Of a stretch of 64,000 nucleotides of DNA, positions 26,414-59,688 are shown one piece after another. Source of the stretch: Candidatus Bathyarchaeia archaeon (GTDB lineage: Archaea; Thermoproteota; Bathyarchaeia; Bathyarchaeales; Bathycorpusculaceae); assembly GCA_050015395.1 (NCBI GenBank), contig JBEKBM010000004.1, positions 32,001-96,000 of the forward strand, given 5' to 3'. Under the pieces are notes generated by a model that worked only from the letters and a program-made list of their open reading frames with translations, made no database searches and had not been told where the DNA came from. Both the position numbers and the translations under genes were made by a program. Position 1 is the stretch's first letter, and every line of letters begins with the position of its first letter.

Positions 26414-27778
26414 ATGAGAAACTTCAAAGACGCAACATGGAAGGAAAACGTAACAAAAGTAATTCAAGAAATACGTGAACAAGAAATTAAATTCATCAGA
26501 CTTCAATTCACAGACATAAATGGTATGTTAAAGAATTTAGCTGTAAGCTCAAAAAACATTGAGTCAATATTTGAAAACGGCCAATCTTTCGATGGGTCCT
26601 CCATAACGGGCTACAGGCCTATCGAAGAATCAGACATGGTGCTGTTCCCCGACCCGACAACCTTCGCGGTTCTGCCTTGGCGACCCAAAGAAAAATCTTC
26701 TGCGAGGCTGCTCTGCGACATTTACACTCCGCAAAACAAGCGTTTTGAAGGGGACCCACGGTACGTTCTTGAGCGAGCCATTGAAAAAGCGTCCAAAGCA
26801 GGCTACACGTTCATTTGTGCTCCAGAATTAGAATTTTTTATAGTTAAAGAAAGCGAAACTGGCGGCTTGCCAACGCCCATAGACATGGCAGGCTACTTCG
26901 ATTTTCATCCTGGCGACTTAACAGACGACCTTAGACGGGAGATAGCTGATACTGCTGAAGCCTTCGGTATAGAAATAGAAATTTCGCATCATGAAGTTGC
27001 ATTGGGACAAAACGAAATCGATTTCAAATATGATGAGGCATTAAAAACAGCTGATAGAACCATTACTATGAAAATGTGCGGAAAAGTAGTCGGTGCAAGA
27101 AACGGTTACGTCACCACGTACATGCCTAAACCGTTCCCTGGCATAAATGGTTCAGGAATGCATACTCATCAAAGCCTCTGGAGCAAGAATGTGACACAAA
27201 ACCTCTTTTACGCAGATGACGAAAAAAACGGTTACTTATCAGACTTAGCAAGAAACTTCATCGGCGGACAATTAGCTCACGGACGCAAAATGTGCGCAAT
27301 TCTTGATTCATGGCCAAACAGTTTCAAACGATTAGTCCCCGGCTACGAAGCACCAGTATATCTTGCTTGGGCACACAAAAACCGCTCACCGCTTATCCGT
27401 GTACCAAACTTTGGCGGAAGGAAAAACGCTGCCAGATGCGAAATCCGCTGCCCAGACGGAGCAGGAAACCCATATCTGCAATTTGCAGTGCTCCTCGCGA
27501 CTGGTTTGGATGGTATCAAGAACAGGATTGACCCTGGCGAACCAGTGGAATTAAACGTTTACCAAATGACCTATGAAGAGCGCAAAGACCGAAACATCGT
27601 CTCACTGCCAGAATCATTACAAGAAGCACTTGATGAGCTGGAAACCAGCGATTTGATGCGTGAAACACTGGGCGAAACCGCATTCGAAAATTTCCTGCGT
27701 GAAAAACGCAAAGAATGGGACCTCTACCGCACGCAAGTAACCGAGTGGGAAGTCAACCGCTACATCAAACGACTCTAA
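26414..27778 (+). CDS. glnA: Second glutamine synthetase family protein (GSI-alpha-like)
   Basis: LQFTD, FDGSS, APELEFF, HHEVA.GQNEID, GSGMH, KRLVPGYEAP, NRS, EIR. Confidence 0.9.
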   Translation: MRNFKDATWKENVTKVIQEIREQEIKFIRLQFTDINGMLKNLAVSSKNIESIFENGQSFDGSSITGYRPIEESDMVLFPDPTTFAVLPWRPKEKSSARLLCDIYTPQNKRFEGDPRYVLERAIEKASKAGYTFICAPELEFFIVKESETGGLPTPIDMAGYFDFHPGDLTDDLRREIADTAEAFGIEIEISHHEVALGQNEIDFKYDEALKTADRTITMKMCGKVVGARNGYVTTYMPKPFPGINGSGMHTHQSLWSKNVTQNLFYADDEKNGYLSDLARNFIGGQLAHGRKMCAILDSWPNSFKRLVPGYEAPVYLAWAHKNRSPLIRVPNFGGRKNAARCEIRCPDGAGNPYLQFAVLLATGLDGIKNRIDPGEPVELNVYQMTYEERKDRNIVSLPESLQEALDELETSDLMRETLGETAFENFLREKRKEWDLYRTQVTEWEVNRYIKRL

Positions 27779-27834
27779 GCCTAAGGGCTTTCTTTCCTTT
27801 CTTTATTTTTGGCTTCTGTATGTGTTTTAGCTGT

Positions 27835-27992
27835 CGGCTTTTTGTGTTAGGATATTTGTGTGTGCTCAATAGACCCTCCCGGTCTACTAGATGCTTCTAA
27901 TATGCTTCAAATATGATTCAACATAGTTCAACATAGACTCAATGCCCGCACTTTTCATGTAGATTAATGCTTTTTCAACATACTGAGAATAG
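27835..27992 (+). repeat. Dispersed non-coding element, copy A (homologous to 58806-58966 on the minus strand)
   Basis: Core CGGTCTACTAGATG...TATGATTCAACATAGTTCAACATAGA..AAT.CCCGCACTTT; about 63/76 identical ungapped to copy B by hand alignment. Confidence 0.85.
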
Positions 27993-28023
27993 CAGAATCA
28001 CTAACCAGCATGAAACTAAGTGC

Positions 28024-29298
28024 CTAACTTTTAATTTTTTCAACCAGCTCTTTAATGGGAACGATTGTTTGTTCCCGTTTAGCTAAATTCCTCAGCACCA
28101 CAGCGCCCTCTTTTAGCTCGCGTTCGCCGACAATTACTGCAAAATCAGCTTGCCGCCTGTCAGCATCCTCCAAAGCTTTAGCCATCTTGCGGCCCATAAT
28201 TTCAAACTCAACAATAACGCCTGAGCTTCTGAGCATTTGAGCAATTTTTAACGCCTCAACCTTCAAGGCGTCATTCGCTGCAAGAACAAGAACCCTTTTC
28301 TCAACCTTACCTGCAAGGGTTGCTTTCTGGGTTTGCAATGCAAGCGCAACCCTGTCAATCCCGTGCGCACAACCAACCGCTGGCGTGGGTTCGCCGCCGA
28401 ACAATTCGATAAGCCTATCGTACCTGCCCCCGCCACCCAAGGCAATGTCCAGTTGCGGAATGTACACTTCAAAAACCATGCCCGTGTAATACTCTAAGCC
28501 CCTGGCGAATGCGGGCTCAACAACCTGCACAGGGCACCCGCTCTCCACCACAAGCTTAAGCACGTCACCGAGGTTTTCCACGGCAGCCTTAGCCTTCTCG
28601 TAACCAGCCACGTAACTTTTTATTTTCTCAACCGTCTCAAAACAGTCATCGCTTTTCAGCTGCAGTAATCCTTCAAGCATACCGCGGCATCGGTCTGTTG
28701 GCGCCAGCTTGAAAGCTTCCTCGTACTCTTTCTTATCCATGCGTTGCAAAATCGCGTTCTGGGTTTTTTCGTCCACGCCTTCTTGGCTAAGAATGCCGCG
28801 TATTACGCCTATTTGTCCTATTTTGAATGCGTAGCCCTGCAAACCCAAAGTTTTCATTAAACTGTTTGTTAGCAATATGATTTCTGCGTCTGCCTCTGGC
28901 CTGCCTGAGCCCATTAATTCAAAGTTTGACTGCCAAAACTCCCTATACCGCCCACGCTGCGGCTCGTCATAGCGGTAAACGTTGCCCACAGAAAACAGCC
29001 TCAACGGTTTAGGCTCGTTTTTTAGGGCTGTAGTTGCTAAGCGTGCAATTGAAGCGGTAAATTCAGGACGCAGTGCCACTTGTCGGTCGCCGAGGTCTTT
29101 GAAAATGAACATACGCTGCCGAATCTCTTCTCCAGATTTGGCGCTTAAAAGCTCAAGCGGCTCAACAACTGGCGTTATGGCTTCTTTGTAACCGTAAAGC
29201 GCCGCGGTCTCACGGGCTTTGCTGATTATGTATGTGAAGGCTTGGGCTTCTTCACCAAGTAAATCTCTCATTCCGCGAACGGTTTGGAAAGCTGGCAT
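28024..29298 (-). CDS. hisS: Histidine--tRNA ligase
   Basis: RGMRD, LRPEFTA, RYDEPQRGRYREFWQ, RGLEYYTG, GGGRYD. Confidence 0.97.
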   Translation of the reverse strand: MPAFQTVRGMRDLLGEEAQAFTYIISKARETAALYGYKEAITPVVEPLELLSAKSGEEIRQRMFIFKDLGDRQVALRPEFTASIARLATTALKNEPKPLRLFSVGNVYRYDEPQRGRYREFWQSNFELMGSGRPEADAEIILLTNSLMKTLGLQGYAFKIGQIGVIRGILSQEGVDEKTQNAILQRMDKKEYEEAFKLAPTDRCRGMLEGLLQLKSDDCFETVEKIKSYVAGYEKAKAAVENLGDVLKLVVESGCPVQVVEPAFARGLEYYTGMVFEVYIPQLDIALGGGGRYDRLIELFGGEPTPAVGCAHGIDRVALALQTQKATLAGKVEKRVLVLAANDALKVEALKIAQMLRSSGVIVEFEIMGRKMAKALEDADRRQADFAVIVGERELKEGAVVLRNLAKREQTIVPIKELVEKIKS

Positions 29299-46348: not shown

Positions 46349-47629
46349 ATGAAGAGAATGAGCAAATCATCAGTTATTTCAGGCTTCTATAAGCTTTCGC
46401 CGAAAGAGCGTTTAGCAATCGTTAAAGATTTCGCAGGCTTAACCGATGAGGAAGTCCGTTTACTTGAGGACACAGGTTCCGTGTCCATTGATTTGGTTGA
46501 CCACATGGTGGAGAACGTTATCGGCGTTTTCCCTGAACCATTAGGCATCGCAGGCAACTTCCAAATTAACGGTAAAGACTATTTGATTCCGATGGCGACT
46601 GAAGAGCCAAGCGTGATCGCCGCTGCCAGCTACGCGGCTAAAATGGTAAGGGACGGCGGAGGATTTCACACCAGCAGTACAGCGCCGATTATGATTGGGC
46701 AAATCCAAGTTGTCGGCATCAAGGATGCTAAAGCGGCTAAGAAGCAGGTTTTAGATGCTAAAGCTGATGTTCTTAAGAAGGCGAATGACCAAGACCCAGT
46801 TTTGAACTCTTTCGGCGGCGGAGCAAAAGACCTGGACGCTAAAATCATCGACACTTCGTTGGGGCAGATGTTGATTGTAGAGTTGTATGTTGATTGTCGA
46901 GATGCCATGGGCGGGAACGCTGTTAATACTATGGCTGAAGCAGTGGCGCCGCTAATTGAGCAGCTTACGGGCGGTCACGTTTATTTGCGCATTATCTCTA
47001 ACTTAGCCACTAAACGATTGGCGAAAGCATGGTGCTCCGTGCCCAAGGAATCGCTAGGCGGGGAAGCAGTTGTGGACGGCATCGCTTACGCCTCGGCTTT
47101 TGCAGAAGCTGACCCTTACCGCGCAGCAACACATAACAAAGGCGCCATGAACGGCATAATAGCAGTGGTTCTTGCAACGGGAAATGACCACCGCGCTATT
47201 GAGGCTGGCGCTCACGCTTATGCCGCGTTAAAAGGACCATACACTTCCATATCAAAATGGACAAAAAACAAAAACGGCGACTTAGAAGGCGTAATCGAGC
47301 TGCCGATGGCGGTAGGCTTAATCGGCGGCGCAGTAAAAACTCATCCGATAGCAAGAGTTGCCATGAAAATCTTAGGCGTCAAATCAGCTAACGAGTTCGC
47401 TGAAGTCTTAGCAGCCGTCGGACTAGCCCAAAATCTAGGCGCCTTGCGAGCGCTGGCGAATGAGGGAATTCAGCGCGGTCACATGTCTCTGCACGCAAGA
47501 AACATCGCAATTACCGCGGGAGCCAAAGACGATTTGGTTGATAAAGTTGCAGAGCGGATGGTTAAGGAACGAAAGGTTCGAGTGGACAGAGCCAAAGAAA
47601 TCCTTGAAGAATTAACCAAAAAACAATAG
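46349..47629 (+). CDS. mvaA: Class II HMG-CoA reductase
   Basis: ENVIG, ATEEPSV, DAMGGN, ATHNKG, GIQRGHMSLH. Confidence 0.94.
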   Translation: MKRMSKSSVISGFYKLSPKERLAIVKDFAGLTDEEVRLLEDTGSVSIDLVDHMVENVIGVFPEPLGIAGNFQINGKDYLIPMATEEPSVIAAASYAAKMVRDGGGFHTSSTAPIMIGQIQVVGIKDAKAAKKQVLDAKADVLKKANDQDPVLNSFGGGAKDLDAKIIDTSLGQMLIVELYVDCRDAMGGNAVNTMAEAVAPLIEQLTGGHVYLRIISNLATKRLAKAWCSVPKESLGGEAVVDGIAYASAFAEADPYRAATHNKGAMNGIIAVVLATGNDHRAIEAGAHAYAALKGPYTSISKWTKNKNGDLEGVIELPMAVGLIGGAVKTHPIARVAMKILGVKSANEFAEVLAAVGLAQNLGALRALANEGIQRGHMSLHARNIAITAGAKDDLVDKVAERMVKERKVRVDRAKEILEELTKKQ

Positions 47630-47637
47630 TTTTTTTG

Positions 47638-50146
47638 CCTTATATCCTTGTTTTGATGGATCACCTTTTTGGACGTCTTGTAAGTGTATGATGCGGTAGA
47701 TTTCAGCCTGGTTTCAATCCTTGTTTTGATGGATCACCTTTTTGGATTACACGCAACTTAAGGAAAGTTGGAAAATACATTGTTTCAATCCTTGTTTTGA
47801 TGGATCACCTTTTTGGACGTTCTTTAAAACTATGAATGCTATCTGTATCTGTAGTTTCAATCCTTGTTTTGATGGATCACCTTTTTGGACTCCAACTTGA
47901 ATTTCTGATTCAATCAGCAGTTTGGTTGTTTCAATCCTTGTTTTGATGGATCACCTTTTTGGACTGTCGCTGAAGCTGTCAATAATGCGTTTCGAAGCCT
48001 GCTGTTTCAATCCTTGTTTTGATGGATCACCTTTTTGGACATTGGCAGAAATTTGTTTGGTGCCTTTATCACAGTTTCAATCCTTGTTTTGATGGATCAC
48101 CTTTTTGGACAGCTATAAAGGAAAATGAAAGCATGGCTCGATACTTGTTTCAATCCTTGTTTTGATGGATCACCTTTTTGGACGATTCACGCGAACAGCC
48201 CAGAAGTAACACGTGAAATGATGTTTCAATCCTTGTTTTGATGGATCACCTTTTTGGACGATTCACGCGAACAGCCCAGAAGTAACACGTGAAATGATGT
48301 TTCAATCCTTGTTTTGATGGATCACCTTTTTGGACAAGCGTCTATGGCGGCTTATAATGAACTTTTCAGTTGTTTCAATCCTTGTTTTGATGGATCACCT
48401 TTTTGGACCAGAACGCGGGCGCAGGCTTCGCAGATTTAGCAAGGGTTTCAATCCTTGTTTTGATGGATCACCTTTTTGGACCATAATCAAGCGGCAAACC
48501 CAAGTTGGGAACCCTAGTTTCAATCCTTGTTTTGATGGATCACCTTTTTGGACAAAAACATGGCGCAACTTCATACTGGAGTTGGCTAAAGTTTCAATCC
48601 TTGTTTTGATGGATCACCTTTTTGGACACCTCATGTATCTACCGCAATTCAGTTTATGGAGTGTTTCAATCCTTGTTTTGATGGATCACCTTTTTGGACC
48701 GCGGTTTTAACAGGCATCGTAACGGGCACGTATAGTTTCAATCCTTGTTTTGATGGATCACCTTTTTGGACATCGTAGAACTTACAATGCCCGCGCTCGT
48801 CATTAAGTTTCAATCCTTGTTTTGATGGATCACCTTTTTGGACTTCCTCTAGGATTCTTTAACGCATAAGTTATATTGTTTCAATCCTTGTTTTGATGGA
48901 TCACCTTTTTGGACGTCTACTTGGCAGGAGTGGAAAGCAGCGGTTTACTGTTTCAATCCTTGTTTTGATGGATCACCTTTTTGGACTCTTTCAATTTTTA
49001 TTTCCTCATATCACGTATATTTAGTTTCAATCCTTGTTTTGATGGATCACCTTTTTGGACTGTTTTGCGCATGCGGCGCCTGCAGCTGAAGAGTTGTTTC
49101 AATCCTTGTTTTGATGGATCACCTTTTTGGACCTGATTTCTGGAATATGGTTTCAGCGCCAACAATGTTTCAATCCTTGTTTTGATGGATCACCTTTTTG
49201 GACACCGTTCTGCTTCACGAAAGTCGCGCTTTTACCCGGTTTCAATCCTTGTTTTGATGGATCACCTTTTTGGACCATGCATCCAGAAATCGCAACAGGT
49301 ACTTTGCAGGATAGTTTCAATCCTTGTTTTGATGGATCACCTTTTTGGACAACCCCTTAACTTTCGCCCTATTCTCCAAAATAAGAAGTTTCAATCCTTG
49401 TTTTGATGGATCACCTTTTTGGACTTTTGTAGACGCTTTTGATATTGCAATGGTACCGATGTTTCAATCCTTGTTTTGATGGATCACCTTTTTGGACCCT
49501 TGCGCTGAATCGCGTCCCTGCAAACTCGCGTAAGTTTCAATCCTTGTTTTGATGGATCACCTTTTTGGACACTGGTAGTTCTGGTTTAATAAGTGTTACT
49601 TATCCTTGTTTCAATCCTTGTTTTGATGGATCACCTTTTTGGACTTTTAATATTATTATCCTTAAACTGTTCAACACCAGTTTCAATCCTTGTTTTGATG
49701 GATCACCTTTTTGGACTAAAGCTGTTGCATACCACCACCACTATTAGATTGTTTCAATCCTTGTTTTGATGGATCACCTTTTTGGACACGGAGGGATAAA
49801 GCAAAGTGAGTGGAGCTCCTGGTTTCAATCCTTGTTTTGATGGATCACCTTTTTGGACACAGCCTTCGGAATCCGAAGGTTAGCACTTACCAAAAACGTT
49901 TCAATCCTTGTTTTGATGGATCACCTTTTTGGACGGATATTTTGGGTTTTACGATTTTAGAATCTGCAGTTTCAATCCTTGTTTTGATGGATCACCTTTT
50001 TGGAGTTTACATCGCGCTTGTTGACACGAACGGAAGCGTGTTTCAATCCTTGTTTTGATGGATCACCTTTTTGGACATTCTTGACGACCGCGAAACGAAA
50101 AACACGCATGTTTCAATCCTTGTTTTGATGGATCACCTTTTTGGAC
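47638..50146 (-). CRISPR. CRISPR array: 35 repeats (37 bp, GTCCAAAAAGGTGATCCATCAAAACAAGGATTGAAAC) and 34 spacers of 33-39 bp
   Basis: Counted manually. The degenerate terminal repeat at 47638-47674 and the ATTGAAAC 3' end orient the array on the minus strand. Confidence 0.98.
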
Positions 50147-50268
50147 AGCCGGCAAATTGGGGTTTATTGTGTGTTCGAGGCAGGTTTTGTGCTTTTTTGG
50201 AAATTGATTTTTCATGATCTCTTGATTATTAGAGCCTTTATAAAGAAAAGGCTTTGCCCAAAAATTCC
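50147..50268 (-). promoter_or_regulatory. CRISPR leader
   Basis: AT-rich segment between the cas4 stop and the first intact repeat; TTTATAAA box at about 50237-50244. Confidence 0.7.
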
Positions 50269-50889
50269 TTAGGCATAGTTTGCAGAAACATCTGTAGACG
50301 GTTGTCTTTTTGAAGTACATGGTGGACAGATTTTTCGGTAACAACAGTTCAGGCAACGGTTATCATGTCTGGACGGAGGGATGAGACCTGAACTTAAAAC
50401 ATCACGTGTTTTCTGAAGTGTCGATAGGGCTAATTGTTTGATATTTTTTGTGATTTTTACTTGGATTTCAATTCGTTTTGTTTTGTCAAAAACAATTATT
50501 GCTCTTTTCGCTTTTTTCCCAAAGTTCTCTTCCGCAAGAATGGCCAGTAATCCCAACTGTGTTTTCATCGTCGGACCTATTACAGCATAATCGGAATACT
50601 TTCGTTCTATGATAAGAATCTCATCAGATGTTTCTATAGCCTCATCGATTTTACCTGAAAACATGTATTCCTTAGAGTAAAGCAGTATCTCCGTCAACTT
50701 TACACCGTTCAATCTTTTGATTTTGTAGCTCTTGTTAGTCGTGGAATGGCGACTATGGAAAGTTCTCCCTGCTAGTACTGTTCCACGTTTTCCTTCTCGC
50801 TGTTCAATTCCAAGAACTAGCTGGAAATAGGTGAATCGGGGACAAAAAGCATGTTCAACCGCGTTTGTAACAGATAGACCACTACTCAA
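50269..50889 (-). CDS. cas4: CRISPR-associated Cas4
   Basis: FCPR, GKIDE, IERK, Q(L), CLNCCYRKIC Fe-S cysteines. Confidence 0.92.
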   Translation of the reverse strand: MSSGLSVTNAVEHAFCPRFTYFQLVLGIEQREGKRGTVLAGRTFHSRHSTTNKSYKIKRLNGVKLTEILLYSKEYMFSGKIDEAIETSDEILIIERKYSDYAVIGPTMKTQLGLLAILAEENFGKKAKRAIIVFDKTKRIEIQVKITKNIKQLALSTLQKTRDVLSSGLIPPSRHDNRCLNCCYRKICPPCTSKRQPSTDVSANYA

Positions 50890-51182
50890 AGTACCATACT
50901 CTCCAGATTATTCGAGACGTACTCTTTATCGAATCCTTGACCGATAATGGTGACTCTGCCAAAGCATTTCTGGCAAGCAAAAATCAAGTATATAGACTCA
51001 TCTTCCCCAGCAATACGCTTAAGCTTCTCCACCAAATCCTTCTTCTGCTGAGATGAAAGAGAACCGCAAAAAACACTTTTCTGTATTCTAACGAAGCCTA
51101 TATCTTTGAGCGCTTGGACTATGCGTGAGCGGGTCTTGTCATCAGATATGTCATATACAGCATAGTACATGTTTTTCTTCAA
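50886..51182 (-). CDS. cas2: CRISPR-associated Cas2
   Basis: VYDISDDKTR, RIQKSVF. Confidence 0.95.
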   Translation of the reverse strand: MKKNMYYAVYDISDDKTRSRIVQALKDIGFVRIQKSVFCGSLSSQQKKDLVEKLKRIAGEDESIYLIFACQKCFGRVTIIGQGFDKEYVSNNLESMVL

Positions 51183-51185
51183 GAA

Positions 51186-52145
51186 TCAACCTTCTTCCAT
51201 CAATTTAGCTATCATTTTTCGGCAGTAAACCCAGCCTTCTCGCTCTATTGATTTTGATACATCTGTCATGTATCCATCAATTACAGCTTTTCGCCCTTCC
51301 TTAGAGAGGAAAACTCCAGACGCGGGCTCACCTTGCTGCGGAACTGTAAACCAAGAATCCCCGACCATTCTTTTAGTGAACAATTTTATCGCCAAACGAT
51401 CAACTTTAGCCCTAAACAGCTCAATCACGTCAAAGACCAAAGTTGGCTTACCATACGCATCTGCATGGTAAATTCCAGCATTCGGATCTAACCCACTCAA
51501 AATAACCACCTTTTCCAAACTTGAATAAGTCAACCCATAAGCATAATTCAGAACTGCATTAAATTTGTCCTCAGCAGGTTGCCGACTTCTCTCCCTAAAC
51601 GCATATTTTTTAGGCAATATCGCCGAAATCGCCGAGAAATATTCTGAAGCCGCAAAACCTTCGATGCCTAAAAGGGACTGCTTGAAAGAGAGCGCATACT
51701 CAAGTGATTTCAAGCTCGCCAATGACCTATTAATGCTTTCAATGGCTTTTTGTACTTTTTCGCTTGGAGTTTTTCTATTATTTTTTAGATCGACTAGTAG
51801 CTTTTTTTGTTCACGAAGTTTCCGAGATACTATCTCCTTAGATAGCTCGAATGCTAGAGCAGACTCTTGATGAAGGTACTGTTTTCGCCTAACCTCTGTC
51901 GCCCTCCCAGGTGTGCTCATCCAAAACCTTCCAAACGGTTTACCTGACCAATTTGCCAAGACCAGCTGGATACCTTTTTCTAAACAGAGAGCCACCGCCT
52001 GAGTGCTAACCAGAGCGTTGGCAGTGATCATTATGGCGTCAACTTTTTCTGCAGGTATCTCTATCTTGTCACTTGGCGTTTGAATCAGGAAACAATCATG
52101 ATTTCTCTTCAACACACTCCCATGTTCACTTATCTCAACTATCAT
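51186..52145 (-). CDS. cas1: CRISPR-associated Cas1
   Basis: LGIEG..A..YF, R..QPAEDKFNAVLNYAY, GLDPNAGIYH, LVFDVIELFR. Confidence 0.95.
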   Translation of the reverse strand: MIVEISEHGSVLKRNHDCFLIQTPSDKIEIPAEKVDAIMITANALVSTQAVALCLEKGIQLVLANWSGKPFGRFWMSTPGRATEVRRKQYLHQESALAFELSKEIVSRKLREQKKLLVDLKNNRKTPSEKVQKAIESINRSLASLKSLEYALSFKQSLLGIEGFAASEYFSAISAILPKKYAFRERSRQPAEDKFNAVLNYAYGLTYSSLEKVVILSGLDPNAGIYHADAYGKPTLVFDVIELFRAKVDRLAIKLFTKRMVGDSWFTVPQQGEPASGVFLSKEGRKAVIDGYMTDVSKSIEREGWVYCRKMIAKLMEEG

Positions 52146-52825
52146 GCCACTCGCCTTATCGTACCAAACCCTTTCGAAACACTCTTTCCCAACCCTATAA
52201 AATCTGGAAGATCAACATTCAAACAGAAACGGGCAACGAAAGCCTCGAACGGATTACCATGGGCTTTTACACATAACGGCCTAAACATGGTGATTTGAGA
52301 ATTAATGTGGTAGGTTACGAAAATGCCCAAACCTTTAAGGCAACTTAACGTATTTCCCACCAGTATTTTCTCTAAGAACCCTTTTTGCTGCTCTTTATCC
52401 ATAACCGTAAATGTAGCATAATTTTTCTCATTTAACGGAATCCAAGGCGTTACGAACTCGTAGAAACAGGTCCTGCTACAGACAGGCCAAGTTTGCAGTT
52501 CAATCTCTTTACTATTAACCTCAAAAGTCCCTTGCACGGTTGAGACCGTATCAATTGACGCCAGTTTATTCATCAAGACATTGGCGTAATCCTGAAGACC
52601 TACCACCATCAGTTCGCCATTAACCCGTTTGTACTGGATGAGCGGATAATGATAAGACCGCTCAGAATGATGATGAAACTCGGCGTCATCAACAAAAAGG
52701 TTACCGCAAAAACCCCTCAACTTAACTGATGAAATACAAGAAGCATCATCTACGAAATGCAGTTTCACCCTGCAAATCTTGACTGACTGATCTTTTTTAG
52801 CAACTGAAACATCAGGTTTACTCAC
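52142..52825 (-). CDS. cas6: CRISPR-associated Cas6 (Cas6b-like)
   Basis: KLRGF, HHH..YHYPLIQYK, FVTPWIPLN, GLGKSVSKGFG Gly-rich loop. Confidence 0.92.
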   Translation of the reverse strand: MSKPDVSVAKKDQSVKICRVKLHFVDDASCISSVKLRGFCGNLFVDDAEFHHHSERSYHYPLIQYKRVNGELMVVGLQDYANVLMNKLASIDTVSTVQGTFEVNSKEIELQTWPVCSRTCFYEFVTPWIPLNEKNYATFTVMDKEQQKGFLEKILVGNTLSCLKGLGIFVTYHINSQITMFRPLCVKAHGNPFEAFVARFCLNVDLPDFIGLGKSVSKGFGTIRRVA

Positions 52826-55097
52826 GAGCTTTCACCCATTTATCAAGCCCTATAACCGGATCGTAAACTTTGGAAACACACTCTTTCTTAGGCAAAAGAA
52901 CCCCTATATTAAACAAGTCATCATCAAACTGGTCCATCAATTTTAGCCCTTCAACTGTCCCAGGCAACTCTGCCATAAAACCTGAAAACCGTTTATACAA
53001 CGCACCCTTACTATCAAAAGAACCTGAAGACAAGAACCGCGACTTCACTTCATCCCACTCCGACAAGTCGGGTATAAAAACAGAATCACCCAACTCCACA
53101 GGCAAAACATGACTTTTAATGAAAGCCCAAACATCCTCAAACTCAAGCCGCTTCATACTAGAACTCAACTCGTCAGCCAATTTACTATTAAGTTTGTTAC
53201 TTTCGCTAACTTTGCGGTAATACTCAGGTAAACGCTCATACAAATCAACCGACGAATGCAACTGTGGAATCAACCGTTTAGAAAGGTTCATTTCAAGTTC
53301 ACTATAGGGTCTATAATCATCATCCAAATCAAAAACCGTCAAAACAGGTTCAGCCACCTCACCTTCCCGACTAAGACGCCCCATTGCCTGAACAATATTA
53401 TCTAACGGGGCCACCTCTCGATACATTCGAGTGAAGCTCACATCAACACCAGCCTCCATAACTTGCGTTGAAACAACAGTTGCAGTACCAGAACTATGAA
53501 GATCCTCAACAGCCTTCTTCCTTGCGCACTTCTTAATACCGCTTGATAAGTAAACCACATCAGATTTAAGCCGCGATATATCCTCGTAGAGTTTACAAGC
53601 TTTCCGCCGAGTATTAACCATAAAAAGTACGCGCTCATCACTCCCGAGAACAGGCACCTCCAATGAAACATCAAAACCTGCCTTAAACTCGATCCGTTTA
53701 GAAGTCAACCGCAAATAATTATCCTTCACTTCGTCTGGAGTATTCAACATTGGCAAACCATTAACTTCTTGAGGCACAGTAGCACTAACTAAAAGAATCG
53801 TTGAATTGTACTTGTCAACAAGCACCCTAAACAAAGAGAGAAGATTGGGAAGCAAAAACTTCGGAATCGTCTGAACCTCATCTATAATCAAAAAAGAATT
53901 TTTAAAAGCAAGAAGCTTCTCCTTATCAGCCGGCTCATTCGAATAAAGCACCATCAATAATCTCTGCGTCGTTGAAACAATCAATTCTCTATTAAAAGAC
54001 TCAACTTCAAAATATTCACGGGTTTTCCTAAAACCCGCTTCTTCCTCGTCACTTACCACTCCACTGGTTTTTTTAAGAAGACTCCCAACAAAAGCATGAT
54101 TATATATCAAAACTTTTTCCAAGTCTTTTTGCTTAAGAACAGCTTCAACCTCATTTTTGCCAAAAAGCTTAGCTTCAAAATCTTCAGTAAGCGCTAACAG
54201 TGGAGAAAAATAAAATACTCTTTCAAACACCCTCTTCTGCGAAAGACGGTTAACTATATCAAGAAAAATCTTTGTCTTACCTATTCCTGTAGGCGCCTTC
54301 AAAACCATCAATCTATCCTCAAACTCATTTTGAGAAAGAACTTTTTCTTGAAAAGCCCCCCTAAGAGCAGACAAATAACCACTTTTCACTAAAACGCTTG
54401 TGTCAAAGTTAATATTGAAAGCAGGATTTTTCCAATCAAAAAAACTGCCACGGTCAGCTAGAATAAGCGCCGAATACACCGCGGAAAAATCCAAAAAATC
54501 CATCGGAGCAACCACCTTGTTTTCAGCCTCAAAGCCATCCTCATTTTGGGGTTTACTCAAACGTTTGAATCTCTTAAGACATAAATCCCAATCTAAACCT
54601 CTAAAATCCTCAAGTGCACTAACCTCTTGAATGAACCTCTGCAGGTTAACCCCGACGCCCTCAAAACTTTTATCAAAACGGCGTTTGTCTTTGTTACAAT
54701 ACTCCAAGCTCTTATAAAACTGCGTAAGCTTAGAATGATGACCCGATACAGCAAATAACACCTGCATCCAACCCTGCCGTGTTAAAACCTCATTATTACT
54801 TAACCCGTAAGCGGCTAAAGCCGAAAAAATCGCGTGAGCCCTTACATAATTTCTATCGACTCCAATTTTCACGTTTTCACGACTTGACGGATCACTTGAA
54901 AAAAGTTCTTGATAGTACGGGTTAAGTTTTCCAACATCATGAAGTAAACCCGCATAAAAAGCAGGATCACCAAGACCTATGCTTGAAGCTATTTCCCGCG
55001 CGCCTTTTGCTGTTTTTAAAGAATGAGCGATCAGCCCTGAACCTTCAATCTCTTTAGGACGAGCATAGAAACTGTCAAAAGCAACCAAGCATCTCAA
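52818..55097 (-). CDS. cas3: Cas3 HD nuclease-helicase
   Basis: H, LHDVGK, GHH, LILAD; APTGIGKT, DEVQ, SAT, QAMGRLSR. Confidence 0.95.
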   Translation of the reverse strand: MRCLVAFDSFYARPKEIEGSGLIAHSLKTAKGAREIASSIGLGDPAFYAGLLHDVGKLNPYYQELFSSDPSSRENVKIGVDRNYVRAHAIFSALAAYGLSNNEVLTRQGWMQVLFAVSGHHSKLTQFYKSLEYCNKDKRRFDKSFEGVGVNLQRFIQEVSALEDFRGLDWDLCLKRFKRLSKPQNEDGFEAENKVVAPMDFLDFSAVYSALILADRGSFFDWKNPAFNINFDTSVLVKSGYLSALRGAFQEKVLSQNEFEDRLMVLKAPTGIGKTKIFLDIVNRLSQKRVFERVFYFSPLLALTEDFEAKLFGKNEVEAVLKQKDLEKVLIYNHAFVGSLLKKTSGVVSDEEEAGFRKTREYFEVESFNRELIVSTTQRLLMVLYSNEPADKEKLLAFKNSFLIIDEVQTIPKFLLPNLLSLFRVLVDKYNSTILLVSATVPQEVNGLPMLNTPDEVKDNYLRLTSKRIEFKAGFDVSLEVPVLGSDERVLFMVNTRRKACKLYEDISRLKSDVVYLSSGIKKCARKKAVEDLHSSGTATVVSTQVMEAGVDVSFTRMYREVAPLDNIVQAMGRLSREGEVAEPVLTVFDLDDDYRPYSELEMNLSKRLIPQLHSSVDLYERLPEYYRKVSESNKLNSKLADELSSSMKRLEFEDVWAFIKSHVLPVELGDSVFIPDLSEWDEVKSRFLSSGSFDSKGALYKRFSGFMAELPGTVEGLKLMDQFDDDLFNIGVLLPKKECVSKVYDPVIGLDKWVKARE

Positions 55098-55118
55098 GTC
55101 CCAAGAAAAAAGGGGTTC

Positions 55119-55889
55119 CTAATAGAGACATAAAACTTCCTCAGAATCATCAAAGGCATAAAACCTTGCTAAAGATAACTGCGAATAAAAAGAAGATAAC
55201 CGAACGCAAGAACAGATAGAATTCACAGGAACAGGTATGAAATGACGCAGCACTGTTCTTTTCAGTGAATCACCCTTAAAGTAATGGTGAAGATGTCGCT
55301 CAACAAAAACTCTAGCGGGTAACCCATCCGTTTCATCAAATTTAACCCCTGAATTTCCACCCTTAGACTCCACAACCTCATCTAAAAAGACTGCTGAAAC
55401 AAGTCGGTCGAAAGGCTCAACTTCTTTCACATTATCAATTTTATGAAAACGGGGAATTCTCGCTGGGCAATACGAATGACCCAGAGTTGGCGAAAAAACA
55501 AAGTTGTTACCTTTAAGTCGTTCAAGCAGCACTTGGTTCACCTCATTTGTAGACTTGACAAAAATAGTATAGTGAGGGGCAACCAGAAGCTCTGTCTTGA
55601 AAGGTTTTGTTTTTGCCTCTTTTAGCGAACGATGATTTGTGAAGAAAGTCCACTTCACCGGTTGACTTCTAACTTTGATTCCAATTGCAGTTTTTTTCAG
55701 CAGATCGATATAACTTTCGCAGTAAATATCGTCAAATATCGAGTTGGACCTTCTGATACCTAACAAGGCGCCTATCAAGCCGATTACTGCGCTTTTTGAC
55801 GGTATGACAGTTACAGTTTGGTTTGTGGTAACCGATGGGTCTTTGAAGGCTGCGAAGTCTCCTTCAAGGTCGAAGGAGACAATACTCAA
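55119..55889 (-). CDS. cas5: Cas5 (type I-B-like)
   Basis: FDLEGDFAAFK...IPSKSAVIGLIGALLG; PTLG...CPA. Confidence 0.92.
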   Translation of the reverse strand: MSIVSFDLEGDFAAFKDPSVTTNQTVTVIPSKSAVIGLIGALLGIRRSNSIFDDIYCESYIDLLKKTAIGIKVRSQPVKWTFFTNHRSLKEAKTKPFKTELLVAPHYTIFVKSTNEVNQVLLERLKGNNFVFSPTLGHSYCPARIPRFHKIDNVKEVEPFDRLVSAVFLDEVVESKGGNSGVKFDETDGLPARVFVERHLHHYFKGDSLKRTVLRHFIPVPVNSICSCVRLSSFYSQLSLARFYAFDDSEEVLCLY

Positions 55890-56899
55890 TTGGGCGCTTC
55901 CTCCGTTTTGATCAGTTCAACAGGAATGTTCAACTTTTCAATGCTTTTTATTAACTGCGAAGTATCCTTCAACAACTCTCTGCAGCAAGCTATCCGTATG
56001 TTTTTCACTTTTCCCTTACGAGCCGACAACGCATCGATCAGCTTCTCGAACCGCAATGGAGAACTCGTCAGACTGCTAACTTTTTCTTTAAGTGCAGGGT
56101 CTTCTTCTACCAAAATCGGCAAGTCATTATAGATAGCGGAATCATAAGTCACTTCCAGCAGAAATATGCTCCTTTGAGGAAATTTCGACCGAGTAATTAA
56201 TGCGTTTGTTCCTTCCCAAAGACAGGAAACAAGCTTTTCTTCTGCTTTTTTGAAGCTTGCTAAAACTTCTGTGTCCTCTAAATATTGTCCGAGATTCATT
56301 GGGTTTACTGCGCCATGTATTTTTATTAATGCGTAATCTACAGCGTAAAACTTCCCAAATGTGCTGAATTGTTCCTCTTTCTGCGTGTCACCTTGGGCGT
56401 CAACTTTTTCGCTCTTTCTCTCTTTTCCGACAAACCTGCCAGTAATCATCGGATTCAATATTTGTACTTGGTTGATGCTTCTGCCTATGGCGAATTGGAC
56501 AGGACCCGTTAGCTTCTGAGAGCTGCCCTTGCCCTTATCATTCCTAATTGTAACCAGTCCACCGAATAAGGGTACATCAAACGTTTTACAAGCTAATCCT
56601 TTTATGACGTCATCATTCGATTCATCCTTTAGGATTTCTCTTGCTCTGTCATCGGCGGTAACAGCCTTGCCATCCTTATCGAAATCTACGAAAAGTGTAT
56701 AACCATATTCGTTTTTTGCATAATCCCGAATTGTGCGTTTGATTCTAACGTCTGTGACCATTATTGTTCCATCTGACATCAATCTTGGTTGATTTTCGAA
56801 GCCAGGATCACCATTCGGATTATTCCTCGATTCATAATAGAATAGTACTTCTTTTTTAAGATTTTTTAAACCATTTTCTTTATTTTTTGTCATGTCCAT
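55886..56899 (-). CDS. cas7: Cas7 (Csh2/Csd2 family)
   Basis: NPNGDP..ENQPR, TDVRIKRTIRDY, DVPLFG, TGPVQF, TRSK. Confidence 0.93.
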   Translation of the reverse strand: MDMTKNKENGLKNLKKEVLFYYESRNNPNGDPGFENQPRLMSDGTIMVTDVRIKRTIRDYAKNEYGYTLFVDFDKDGKAVTADDRAREILKDESNDDVIKGLACKTFDVPLFGGLVTIRNDKGKGSSQKLTGPVQFAIGRSINQVQILNPMITGRFVGKERKSEKVDAQGDTQKEEQFSTFGKFYAVDYALIKIHGAVNPMNLGQYLEDTEVLASFKKAEEKLVSCLWEGTNALITRSKFPQRSIFLLEVTYDSAIYNDLPILVEEDPALKEKVSSLTSSPLRFEKLIDALSARKGKVKNIRIACCRELLKDTSQLIKSIEKLNIPVELIKTEEAPN

Positions 56900-56909
56900 T
56901 CACCTTTTG

Positions 56910-58703
56910 TTAGAGATTCTCGAAAACTCCTTTGTAGAAGAAATAAGAGTAATCTTCATGCGCTTTCGCATCGTCGATTTCATCGATCGGTATATCCTTT
57001 TTTATTATTTGTGTAATGCTATCTGATCGGTTGACATCAGCGGCTTTAGAGAGCGAAATGCCCAAGCTCACTCGCGAATAGACAAATCTGAGCTTCTCTC
57101 TGTCATACTTTGAATAGGTCAAAATGTCATTCGTTGAGTTATTCGCTTCTTTGGCGTCTCGCTTAAATTTTACATATTTTCCAGCAATGAGTCCAATTTT
57201 ATACGCATATTCTTCATTTTTGTTCATAACTAATCCCTTTTTTCCATCATGAGTTAATAGCTTCAAACAAAACTGGGCAGTTTCGAAGAATTCCTGTTTC
57301 GTTTTTTTCTCCTTTTCAGCGCCCTTTATCCAATCCCAAAGATAATTTTCCCTTATTATAATTAAATAGTGTTGGAGCAAAACAGCTCGATCAAAAAAGG
57401 TGCCCGTCATGAAACACCTTATGGCCATAAGATAATCTGTCCATATAATGTCGTTTTTTCTTTTTATAATGAGGGATTCTAACGCCTTAGGATGCCATAA
57501 AAAATTATCCTGAGCGCTGCTAAACATTTCCTTCATTTGATCAAAAGTCAGGTTTTCATCAAGAAGCACTTCAAGCTTAGCTTGTGCTGCTTTAACGCAT
57601 ATAATCTTCATATTCGATGCACGGCTGGCAGATACTCCTGGTCGACTGGACAGAAGCTTGTAATTGCTGAGAAGTTGGTCGTATATTCCAGCTCCCTTTT
57701 TTTCAAATTGAAATTCTGGGACATTAATATCAAGAAAATACCAAGTCAAACCCGATATGTCAAATCTGCTATCCGATGGCATATTTATCTTTGGGAAGGA
57801 CTGATTACCTATGCCTAGATTCTGGTAGAAATCTTTGCCCGTTTTACAATTAAGGGTAAACGCTTGGTCGTCAAAGGAAACAAACTTTGCGTTTATAGTA
57901 GTCTTTGAGGGAAAATCTGTTGCAGAAGTCCCAAAAGAATCCTCGAACTCTTGAGTCAAAACGACATCTGCGCGCGCATCACAGCGGTATTCAATTTTCA
58001 ACTCATCCGACACAAGCGAATAAGGCAATACAACTATGCGGAATCGGATATTTCCCCAAAAGTCCTTGAGTTCTTCGCACATTTTTTTCGCTTGCCAGAA
58101 TGATGCAAAGGCGCCGCAAACTTTGAAAAAAAGCTCAGAAGTCAGTGCACCATCAGCATTTACAATCCCGGCTTCGCTATAAATTTCAAAGAGATTTTTA
58201 TCTCGCACAAAGTAGTTCTTCTTATCTAATCTCAAGACTAAAGAATCTGCTTTAGATGCTGATTCCTCTTTGTTATTTTCGCAGTCGAAGAGGTATTCAA
58301 AGGAAGGCTTGTTTGTTTCGTCTTTATTCTTTTCCCCTTGAACAGAGATTTGTAGTTTCCCTTTCCTGTAAACGCCATAAAATTCTACATACGGTTTCTT
58401 AGATGCAGCTCCAGTAGCCCTATTGGGGAGACCAACTGATTCCAAATAATTTAAAGGCATAGAAAGAGTTTTACGGAAAGAATCATTTTGCTTTGGTTCA
58501 TCACCGTAATCCTCTAAAGATTTTGGGTCTAACTGAAGAGTTACGGCACCATCAACTTTAACAAACACTTTTTTTATTGGAACAATTCTCTTTATAGTTT
58601 CGTCTGTGTTTTTCTGATTTTTTAGGAAGAGTTCGTAAGCAAGCATTCGGATTTCTCTGGAAATTAGCTTGGATAGCGTATCTCTTCGAACAGTATTTAA
58701 CAC
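56910..58703 (-). CDS. cas8b: Divergent Cascade large subunit (Cas8b-like) with Cas11-like C-terminal helical domain
   Basis: First gene of the cas operon before cas7; C-terminal AYKIG...YFFYKG as in Cas8b/Cas11; start uncertain. Confidence 0.7.
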   Translation of the reverse strand: MLNTVRRDTLSKLISREIRMLAYELFLKNQKNTDETIKRIVPIKKVFVKVDGAVTLQLDPKSLEDYGDEPKQNDSFRKTLSMPLNYLESVGLPNRATGAASKKPYVEFYGVYRKGKLQISVQGEKNKDETNKPSFEYLFDCENNKEESASKADSLVLRLDKKNYFVRDKNLFEIYSEAGIVNADGALTSELFFKVCGAFASFWQAKKMCEELKDFWGNIRFRIVVLPYSLVSDELKIEYRCDARADVVLTQEFEDSFGTSATDFPSKTTINAKFVSFDDQAFTLNCKTGKDFYQNLGIGNQSFPKINMPSDSRFDISGLTWYFLDINVPEFQFEKKGAGIYDQLLSNYKLLSSRPGVSASRASNMKIICVKAAQAKLEVLLDENLTFDQMKEMFSSAQDNFLWHPKALESLIIKRKNDIIWTDYLMAIRCFMTGTFFDRAVLLQHYLIIIRENYLWDWIKGAEKEKKTKQEFFETAQFCLKLLTHDGKKGLVMNKNEEYAYKIGLIAGKYVKFKRDAKEANNSTNDILTYSKYDREKLRFVYSRVSLGISLSKAADVNRSDSITQIIKKDIPIDEIDDAKAHEDYSYFFYKGVFENL

Positions 58704-58805
58704 TTTCTTAGGCAGATGGGCACCTAGTGCTCTCAGTTTGCAGCGTTTATTACGAAGGATTCTGTAACGATGCGTGGCACAGCAATAAAGTCCATGTTAA
58801 AAGTA

Positions 58806-58966
58806 AGCTTATTCGACATGTAAAACAGCTTAATTCATGTTGAAAGTGCGGGAATTAATTCTATGTTGAACTGTGTTGAATCATAGTTGGCGTCTATTAG
58901 GCTCATCTAGTAGACCGAGGGGGTAGGCTGTGAGAGAGCACACACACAAATACCCTATCTAAGCCG
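58806..58966 (-). repeat. Dispersed non-coding element, copy B, upstream of the cas operon
   Basis: Reverse complement aligns with 27835-27992; iterated (C/T)ATGTTGAA motifs. Confidence 0.85.
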
Positions 58967-58992
58967 TAATCTCCCGCCAAGTTAACAGGACC

Positions 58993-59688
58993 TTATTCGA
59001 GTATTATTCTTGCGTCGACTGTTTTTGCGCCTTTCTGGTAAGCCATCACTGGGTTCAGGTCTAGCTCTTTGATTTCAGGGTTATCCATGACGAGGCGTGA
59101 AGTGGCGATTAGTATGCTTATTAGGGCGTCGATGTCTGCGGGCGGCGTGTTTCTGTAACCCTTCAGAAGCGGATAAGCCTTAAGTTCAGTAATCATTTCC
59201 TTCGCATCATCCGCGGTTATGGGTGCAATCCTGAAGCTTACGTCTTTGAGGATTTCAACAAATATCCCGCCTAAACCGAACATTACTGTTTGTCCAAACT
59301 GGGGGTCTTTGATGGCTCCAACGATGACTTCGGTTGACTGCGGCGCCATTTCCTGCACTAAAACGCCGACGATTTTTGCGTCGGCATAGTATTTTTTAAC
59401 GTTTTCCAAGATTTTTTTGTAGGCGTCGGTGACTTCGGCTGGGTTTTTCAGGTTAACGATGACGCCTCCAGCGTCGGATTTGTGGATTACGTCTGGCGAA
59501 ACAATCTTTAATACAACAGGGTACCCGATTTCGCAGGCGTATTCTGCTGCTTCATTTTCGTTTAATGCCACTTTGAATTTGGTAACTGGAATGCCATAGT
59601 CCACGCAGACGGTTTTGGCTTCAGGTTCAAGAAGCGCTTTTCTGCCTTCTTTTTTCGCTTGGTTAATGATTTTTGAGGTCTGATTCAA
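58993..59688 (-). CDS. acdB: ADP-forming acetate--CoA ligase beta subunit (ATP-grasp)
   Basis: GYPVVLKIVSPDVIHKSDAGGV, DPQFG, FGLGGIFVE, ELDLNP, VDARI. Confidence 0.92.
   Translation of the reverse strand: MNQTSKIINQAKKEGRKALLEPEAKTVCVDYGIPVTKFKVALNENEAAEYACEIGYPVVLKIVSPDVIHKSDAGGVIVNLKNPAEVTDAYKKILENVKKYYADAKIVGVLVQEMAPQSTEVIVGAIKDPQFGQTVMFGLGGIFVEILKDVSFRIAPITADDAKEMITELKAYPLLKGYRNTPPADIDALISILIATSRLVMDNPEIKELDLNPVMAYQKGAKTVDARIILE

Follow-up and report, generated by a model that had tools for sequence, protein, structure and literature searches.

Two similar non-coding stretches of a Bathyarchaeia genome, one of them at the edge of a CRISPR-Cas island, are very probably copies of a MITE family with a conserved core

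Introduction

The DNA analysed here, 64,000 nucleotides of a Bathyarchaeia genome (hereafter the window), holds a non-coding stretch at the head of a cas operon and a look-alike of it, in inverted orientation, between glnA and hisS. The question is what this sequence is. The original prediction, made from the letters of the window, allowed for a dispersed repeat, a protein-binding array, an RNA gene or a decayed gene tail. Bathyarchaeia are abundant and uncultured, and to our knowledge their mobile DNA has barely been described. A full-text literature search returned no paper joining Bathyarchaeia with miniature inverted-repeat elements (MITEs). The main texts of a census of prokaryotic MITEs (PMC11602168) and of a survey of archaeal insertion sequences (PMC13343696) do not mention Bathyarchaeia, and the supplementary tables of both may list such elements.

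The analysis makes it very probable that both stretches, called copies A and B below, belong to a MITE family, a non-autonomous DNA transposon that multiplied in one Bathyarchaeia genus. This kind of element is ordinary in itself and newly described here in the lineage; it has a conserved core, and no host function is needed to explain the presence of copy A or of copy B.

Results and Discussion

Two copies in the window, a family in the genus

The resemblance between the two stretches is real. The longest inverted pair that a repeat search found in the window has its arms at 27873-27967 and 58830-58924 (95 nt, 79% complementary), and the sequence blocks listed earlier for copies A and B were recovered in a MAFFT alignment. 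Chance is excluded as the source of the match, since the same sequence is matched 41 times in the genome, the lowest E-value being 1e-54. The element had been taken to be present twice, which was wrong: blastn with both copies as query found 65 places, 50 of them with both core anchors, and the two copies thus far from being alone belong to a large family that is also conserved in related genomes.

The positions first proposed, 27835-27992 and 58806-58966, were right as to place but too narrow. Copy A spans 27818-28024, as delimited by empty-site comparison, and copy B spans 58781-58992, as delimited by family alignments and a junction in the related genome G404. The neighbours were named correctly, with copy A between the genes for glutamine synthetase and histidyl-tRNA synthetase and copy B beside an ATP-grasp gene and cas8. 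A start shortly after a co-oriented stop codon stood for copy A (40 nt past the glnA stop) and for copy B (0 nt past the ATP-grasp stop), but not as a rule of the family, the upstream ORF being co-oriented in 27 and opposite in 20 of 47 intergenic copies of the window's own genome.

In that genome (G000; assembly of 2.59 Mb, 42 contigs), copy A as query gave 41 matches (61 candidates, 40 scored), and the family is put at 50 to 65 copies on 30 or more contigs, about 20 of them 91-98% identical over about 230 bp. Because two contigs have their start within the element, the true copy number is probably higher. An exact 43-nt core pattern occurred at 29 loci in 10 public assemblies, all titled Bathyarchaeia or Bathyarchaeota, and had 0 exact matches in viral contigs. 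In a class-wide sample of 401 genomes, at least 7 had matches, namely the own genome and 6 of the 40 sampled from the same genus; this count is an undercount, two candidates per genome having been scored. At the same depth of scoring, none of the other 130 genera had a family match, so that among the class genomes sampled the matches were confined to the genus of the window. Within the genus, the pattern of the terminal inverted repeats (TIRs) was present in 19 of 101 genomes, with 0 to 30 hits each. Copy number was uneven among close relatives, with 26 matches in G283, 21 in G404, 16 in G458, 8 in G444 and 3 in G403 (up to 40 candidates scored, and about 2 matches per count due to the flanks of the query itself).

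Ends, target sites and movement

The expectation of a dispersed repeat family of MITE type was borne out by TIRs, target-site duplications (TSDs) of 8 bp and empty sites. Elements of the main subfamily measure 228-231 bp and have the TIRs GTRTRTATTTAGCTCT, a pair that 13 elements carry at both ends, and the terminal pairing extends imperfectly to about 28 bp. A full element forms a TIR hairpin on either strand (z = -5.19 and -4.45). The TSD was perfect (8/8) at the called ends in 5 of 15 elements; it was 8/8 at C6:3095 after a 1-nt shift, matched at 6/8 in one further element and was not convincing in 8 of the 15. Random 8-mer pairs at that spacing reach at least 7/8 in 0.055% of trials. A 199-bp variant on contig C10 is flanked by ttattaat, as seen by eye. 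Nearly all copies (48 of 50) were intergenic, lying outside a crude ORF set that covers 77% of the genome, and their orientation relative to neighbouring genes had no clear bias in the own genome.

Insertion polymorphism was found for copy A (see below) and for the copies at C1:17666 and C30:20093. The site of C1:17666 is empty in G283 and G458, where flanks of 90-96% identity are joined with an overlap of 8-9 nt, that is, with the target present once. The site of C30:20093 is likewise empty in both relatives, the flanks of these two sites being 88-96% identical overall. The comparison at C14:28514 was not clean, the flanks near the site being poorly conserved.

The main subfamily is a classical MITE, and the family, with its clear TSDs and empty sites, has been recently active. 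Its elements are short and non-coding (199-331 bp across the family; no codon-position pattern in the reverse-strand frame), have TIRs and a TSD of fixed length, occur in many mostly intergenic copies and are polymorphic for insertion. As regards the TIRs, copy A has the left one and a degenerate right one, and copy B departs from the family at both ends, with a foreign left inverted repeat (IR) and a truncated right side.

Search for an autonomous partner

Neither the own genome nor the TIR pairs of 5 relatives, all searched in fragmented assemblies, yielded a transposase gene enclosed by the family TIRs. In the own genome no TIR pair was more than 331 bp apart, save one weak 5.6-kb pair that is attributed to chance, and the IS66 and IS256 transposase families were absent. 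MITE families are commonly without a known autonomous element of the same TIRs.

Two candidates in related genomes were rejected. The 2.1-kb TIR pair of G458 (C17:51963-54044) is a MITE with a nested IS1182-like element, which consists of a DUF772 plus DDE_Tnp_1_6 transposase and a DUF2080 ORF and sits inside the invariant core directly after ..GATGCTTCTA. The 1.44 kb between family TIRs at G172:C148:5831-7269 encode an ORF of 247 aa with an N-terminal hydrophobic stretch, without a transposase domain and without a Pfam match; the segment may be a cargo-carrying relative of the MITE.

Copy A in the glnA-hisS spacer

Copy A (27818-28024, + strand, 207 bp) lies between glnA (glutamine synthetase; 26414-27778, +) and hisS (histidyl-tRNA synthetase; 28024-29298, -; an ORF with the Pfam domain tRNA-synt_His). 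Empty sites and family alignments place its left TIR at GTATGTGTTTTAGC and its degenerate right end at ..GAAACTAAGTGCC. The decayed left TSD (TGGCTTCT, 27810-27817) matches the right TSD (TAACTTTT, 28025-28032, from the empty-site comparison) at 5 of 8 positions, and the two TSDs of the G458 orthologue, TAACTCTT and TAACTTTT, match at 7 of 8. The segment is absent from the glnA-hisS spacer in G403, G399, G434 and G454 and present in G283 and G458, and the target TAACTCTT stands once in the empty sites of G403, G399 and G434. The insertion of copy A at TAACTCTT, between glnA and hisS, is complete, and it is old enough to be common to three species. The insertion hit the stop codon of hisS, which the last base of the element and the right TSD restore (CTA, that is, TAG on the minus strand).

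Identity between orthologues was uneven along the element. Compared with copy A of G283, the window copy was 96% identical in its left part, 99% in the core and 49% in the tail (flanking genes 92-94%); compared with that of G458, the respective values were 65%, 80% and 91% (flanking genes 92-95%). The three orthologous copies are mosaics, which we take to have arisen by segment exchange between family copies after insertion. Such exchange would also account for a core shared by subfamilies with differing ends, and for the 8 of 15 elements without a clear TSD.

Copy B and its IS6-like end

Copy B (58781-58992, - strand, 212 bp) is abutted by the stop of the ATP-grasp_5 gene (58993-59688, -; Pfam) and has the structure of a chimera, with an IS6-like IR, the family core and a truncated M2-type tail. 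In place of the family TIR stands an IS6-like terminal IR, GGTCCTGTTAACTTGGCGGGAGATTACGG (29 nt, 58964-58992, -). The right side tracks the M2 tail to ..GACTTTATTGCT (58781) and then departs from the family consensus, the tail ending 77 nt before cas8. Copy B has this one IS6-like end only and contains no transposase gene. The GGTTCTGTTAAC.. end was also present at C6:21718, at C37:8347 and in the inverted pair C9:68116/69115 of the own genome, and the hybrid left end of copy B is common to four other family members. Contigs from 4 public DNA runs (4 studies) span both junctions of copy B with 0 differences, so its arrangement is not a mis-assembly, and read depth was 10- to 30-fold higher over its core, as expected of a repeat.

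The left end of copy B (GGTCCTGTTAAC..) resembles the IR (GGTTCTTTCAAG..) of an element of the IS6/IS26 family (Pfam DDE_Tnp_IS240) at C23:47050-49674 in the own genome; both start with GGTTCT and their IR patterns are alike, copy B having the single end. The C23 element is 2,625 bp long, with the IR GGTTCTTTCAAGTCTTCGGTTGATGAGG (28 bp, 96% complementary) and a perfect 8-bp TSD (CGGTTTGC), and encodes a 382-aa SWIM plus DDE_Tnp_IS240 transposase and a passenger Methyltransf_24 gene. It is apparently an intact IS6-type element, and its TSD is of the same length as those of the MITEs, whereas the main family TIR (GTATGTATTTAGC..) is unlike its IR. The left IR of copy B presumably resembles those of IS257 and IS26 as well. 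By its composition, copy B appears to be a product of segment exchange whose left terminus came from a different, IS6-like element.

The GGTTCTGTTAAC.. ends on C9 enclose a 1-kb cassette (C9:68116-69130), which has inverted repeats of about 55 bp (GGTTCTGTTAACTCTTAGGGTGG..GTTAACTGTCGGGTGG) and a 244-aa ORF that is glycosyltransferase-like by eye and not a transposase; no TSD was seen around it.

Mechanism and known systems

In the mechanism that we propose, a DDE-type transposase supplied in trans would recognise the TIRs GTRTRTATTTAGCTCT (imperfect to about 28 bp) and make an 8-bp staggered cut, and the element of 200-330 bp would be inserted, mostly between genes. Copies would swap segments after insertion, which would produce mosaic, "modular" subfamilies and erase many TSDs. 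Copy B would be one such exchange product, with an IS6-like left end and a tail cut where the type I-B island begins.

Comparable prokaryotic MITEs are the SM-type elements of Sulfolobus and, reportedly, MITEAba12. The BOX elements of pneumococci and the Correia elements of Neisseria are modular intergenic repeats, and by description they resemble the present family in their mosaic modules, intergenic position and potential effect on neighbours, whereas mobility is here directly supported by TSDs and empty sites. Prokaryotic MITEs in general (census in PMC11602168) are like the present elements in being short and non-coding, with TIRs and a fixed TSD, dispersed between genes, genus-specific and dependent on a transposase in trans; unlike them, the present family has yielded no partner insertion sequence with the same TIRs, and has a core conserved above the level of the TIRs and subfamilies with different ends. 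The family could serve as a marker for strain-level population studies in peat metagenomes and as a handle on the swapping of defence islands at one hypervariable slot, and offers an explanation for assembly breaks in these metagenome-assembled genomes.

The cas island and its hypervariable slot

The type I-B CRISPR-Cas island (47630-58780, -; assigned by Rfam CRISPR-DR7 and Pfam Cas domains) has an HMG-CoA reductase gene (46349-47629) as its far flank. It comprises an array of about 35 repeats (34 matches to CRISPR-DR7 in the window), cas4, cas2, cas1, cas6b, cas3, cas5 and cas7, each with its Pfam match (Cas4, Cas2, Cas1, Cas6b, Cas3, Cas5, Cas7), and a 597-aa cas8-like ORF without a Pfam match. 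The suspected link of copy B to the island held in so far as comparison with related genomes puts copy B right at one of the two edges of the CRISPR-Cas insertion. Within the array, two adjacent spacers are identical (repeat-spacer units 48146-48221 and 48222-48297, with 100% identity).

The slot between the HMG-CoA reductase and ATP-grasp genes is hypervariable in the genus (16 genomes). It measures 11,363 bp in the window (47630-58992) versus about 50 bp in G442, and 58-138 bp in G415, G038 and G454. A radical-SAM/SPASM gene followed by a family member occupies it in G458, G434, G403 and G410, with a broken version in G404, where the slot also has two PIN genes. The slot of G283 contains two family members with a PIN gene between them and then a DpnI-like gene, that of G444 a tyrosine-integrase element and that of G438 a CcdA/HTH gene set. 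A co-oriented family member adjoins the conserved side of the slot in G000, G283, G404, G403, G434, G458 and G410.

G404 has the same cas8, together with the region upstream of it, on another contig, beside ParA-like and wHTH genes. Over 1.8 kb the two versions are about 95% identical, which exceeds the identity of the housekeeping flanks (87-90%). There too a family member adjoins cas8; it ends where copy B is truncated, belongs to another subfamily and has its core replaced by unrelated sequence. Copy B thus marks the edge of a horizontally mobile island, and the link between MITE and cas8 recurs once (G404).

From this arrangement it could be argued that MITE copies act as attachment or homology sites at which cargo enters, the CRISPR-Cas island included, and that copy B is tied to the arrival of the island. 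The variable contents of the slot across the 16 genomes, with a family member often beside the conserved side, speak for such a role, as do the recurrence of a family member cut at the same position beside cas8 at the other locus of G404 and a unit of MITE, PIN gene and MITE that stands in the slot of G283 and on contig C26 in G000. On the other side, the MITE is present at one end of the island only, the far end consisting of the last CRISPR repeat, at 8-15 nt from the stop of the reductase gene, and having no remnant of a MITE; the MITE bodies beside cas8 in G000 and G404 belong to different subfamilies; and no recombinase is linked to the site in G000. Adjacency of MITE and island is on its own weak evidence, because there is one family copy per 45-50 kb and chance adjacency is not rare. 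We regard entry of cargo at MITE copies as possible but rather unlikely. Integration of the island into a MITE was rejected; it predicts a MITE remnant at the far end, and none is present.

In both genomes cas8 keeps its own 77-nt upstream region (58704-58780, -, in the window), which is borne by the island and not by the MITE and is about 95% identical to the G404 sequence on contig C61, so the element would not be needed to explain the promoter of the operon.

The unit with the PIN gene consists of two co-oriented family members around a toxin-antitoxin module, at different loci in G000 and G283. In G000 it lies at C26:44195-45902, as a MITE, a VapBC-like (PIN) module and a second MITE, the latter cut in the core after ..CTAATAGGCTCC by a gene that is DDE-transposase-like by eye, where the contig ends. 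No TSD was found around this two-MITE composite.

Another dispersed repeat, unrelated to the family and about 220-240 bp long (copies 83-97% identical), occurs at C12:40083-40303, C15:69622, C17:47070, C19:8815, C29:17906 and C35:2140. On C35, a second cas8 paralogue, sharing 83% identity with the window cas8, has one copy of this repeat about 100-330 nt upstream.

The invariant core

The core of copy A (27881-27936, +) reads GGTCTACTAGATG .. CTAAT .. CAAATATGATTCAACATAG TTCAACATAG, its blocks having zero variability in 78 copies, and that of copy B (58861-58916, -) contains tandem TTCAACACAG TTCAACATAG. Across the 78 copies, the blocks GGTCTACTAGATG, CTAAT, CAAATATGATTCAACATAG, CATAGA and CGCACTTT were nearly invariant, with variable stretches in between. 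The 64 kb contain 4 exact instances of TTCAACAYAG, all in copies A and B, where they form tandem pairs at 10-bp spacing (27917-27936 and 58861-58880). Each element has 3 to 5 instances of the half-site TTCAACAT, two of them spaced by 10 bp, and in B-type tails the half-site is found in inverted order too. The core is more conserved than the TIRs and is common to subfamilies with different ends, which a passive MITE does not predict.

One account of this pattern is that the conserved core, of 130 nt, is a cis-acting, putative protein-binding array made of direct and inverted TTCAACAT half-sites and the invariant GGTCTACTAGATG. Invariant blocks among variable stretches, a repeated and regularly spaced half-site with an inverted pair in B-type tails, and retention of the core where the ends differ are consistent with it; the same core identity can also stem from recent amplification and recombination between copies, and no candidate binding protein was identified. 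We judge a binding array of this kind unlikely on balance. The protein would be a host regulator or a mobilising protein. The further step, that copies like B would put their neighbours, such as the cas operon, under its control, is similarly doubtful: orientation had no bias toward downstream genes (27 co-oriented versus 18 opposite), and cas8 retains its upstream region with little change in G404, where the adjacent MITE has lost its core. Our best guess for the core with its TTCAACAT half-sites is a putative binding array for a mobilising protein.

In a broader scenario, to which we give a low probability as well, the core would be a binding array for mobility, the copies would be movable stretches of homology or landing sites by which defence cargo passes from locus to locus and from species to species within the genus, and copy B would be the scar of island delivery. 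The cargo would include the type I-B CRISPR-Cas island, the PIN toxin-antitoxin modules and the DpnI-like nuclease.

The core blocks (27881-27936 and 58861-58916) contain stops in all three frames on both strands (forward TAG, TAA, TGA, TAG, TAG; reverse TAGTAG, TAG, TGA), which may be due to chance in AT-rich DNA.

RNA-gene and gene-tail readings

It is very improbable that the repeats are small non-coding RNA genes, or copies of a 3'-UTR or terminator module, dispersed through the genome. Both window copies do start just past a co-oriented stop codon and T-runs follow the core in all subfamilies, as such a reading would have it, but the upstream gene was co-oriented in only the 27 of 47 copies given above. 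At the gathering threshold of Rfam 15 the window matched CRISPR-DR7 only, and at E up to 1 there was one chance hit (E = 0.55), in three element loci; the window was also negative for tRNA and tmRNA in ARAGORN. RNAalifold gave a consensus near zero over 79 copies (-0.37 kcal/mol forward, -0.15 kcal/mol reverse), that is, no consensus structure, and copies A and B folded no better than their shuffles (z = -0.14 and -1.37). Where full elements fold strongly, they do so symmetrically on the two strands, which is what TIRs in DNA would produce. The RNA suggested in the original prediction was therefore not upheld, and the candidate "new ncRNA/regulatory element" upstream of the cas operon is removed from the annotation.

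The suggestion of a decayed 3' end of a duplicated protein gene, raised by a reverse strand that reads ..MLNYVESYLKHIRSI followed by two stops and by a reverse frame ending in TAGTAG that stays free of stops over 40 codons or more in 37 of 79 copies, has almost nothing left to recommend it, given variability equal at the three codon positions (0.142, 0.147 and 0.127, without third-position excess), open-frame lengths scattered from 7 to 177 codons, an internal stop in copy B, open frames that are common to near-identical recent copies, and elements with TIRs, TSDs and empty sites.

At C14:28575 and C26:44249, the reverse frame ending in TAGTAG is open for 155 and 177 codons, respectively, into the flanking DNA, and at these two places the element may supply the C-terminus and the stop of a host ORF.
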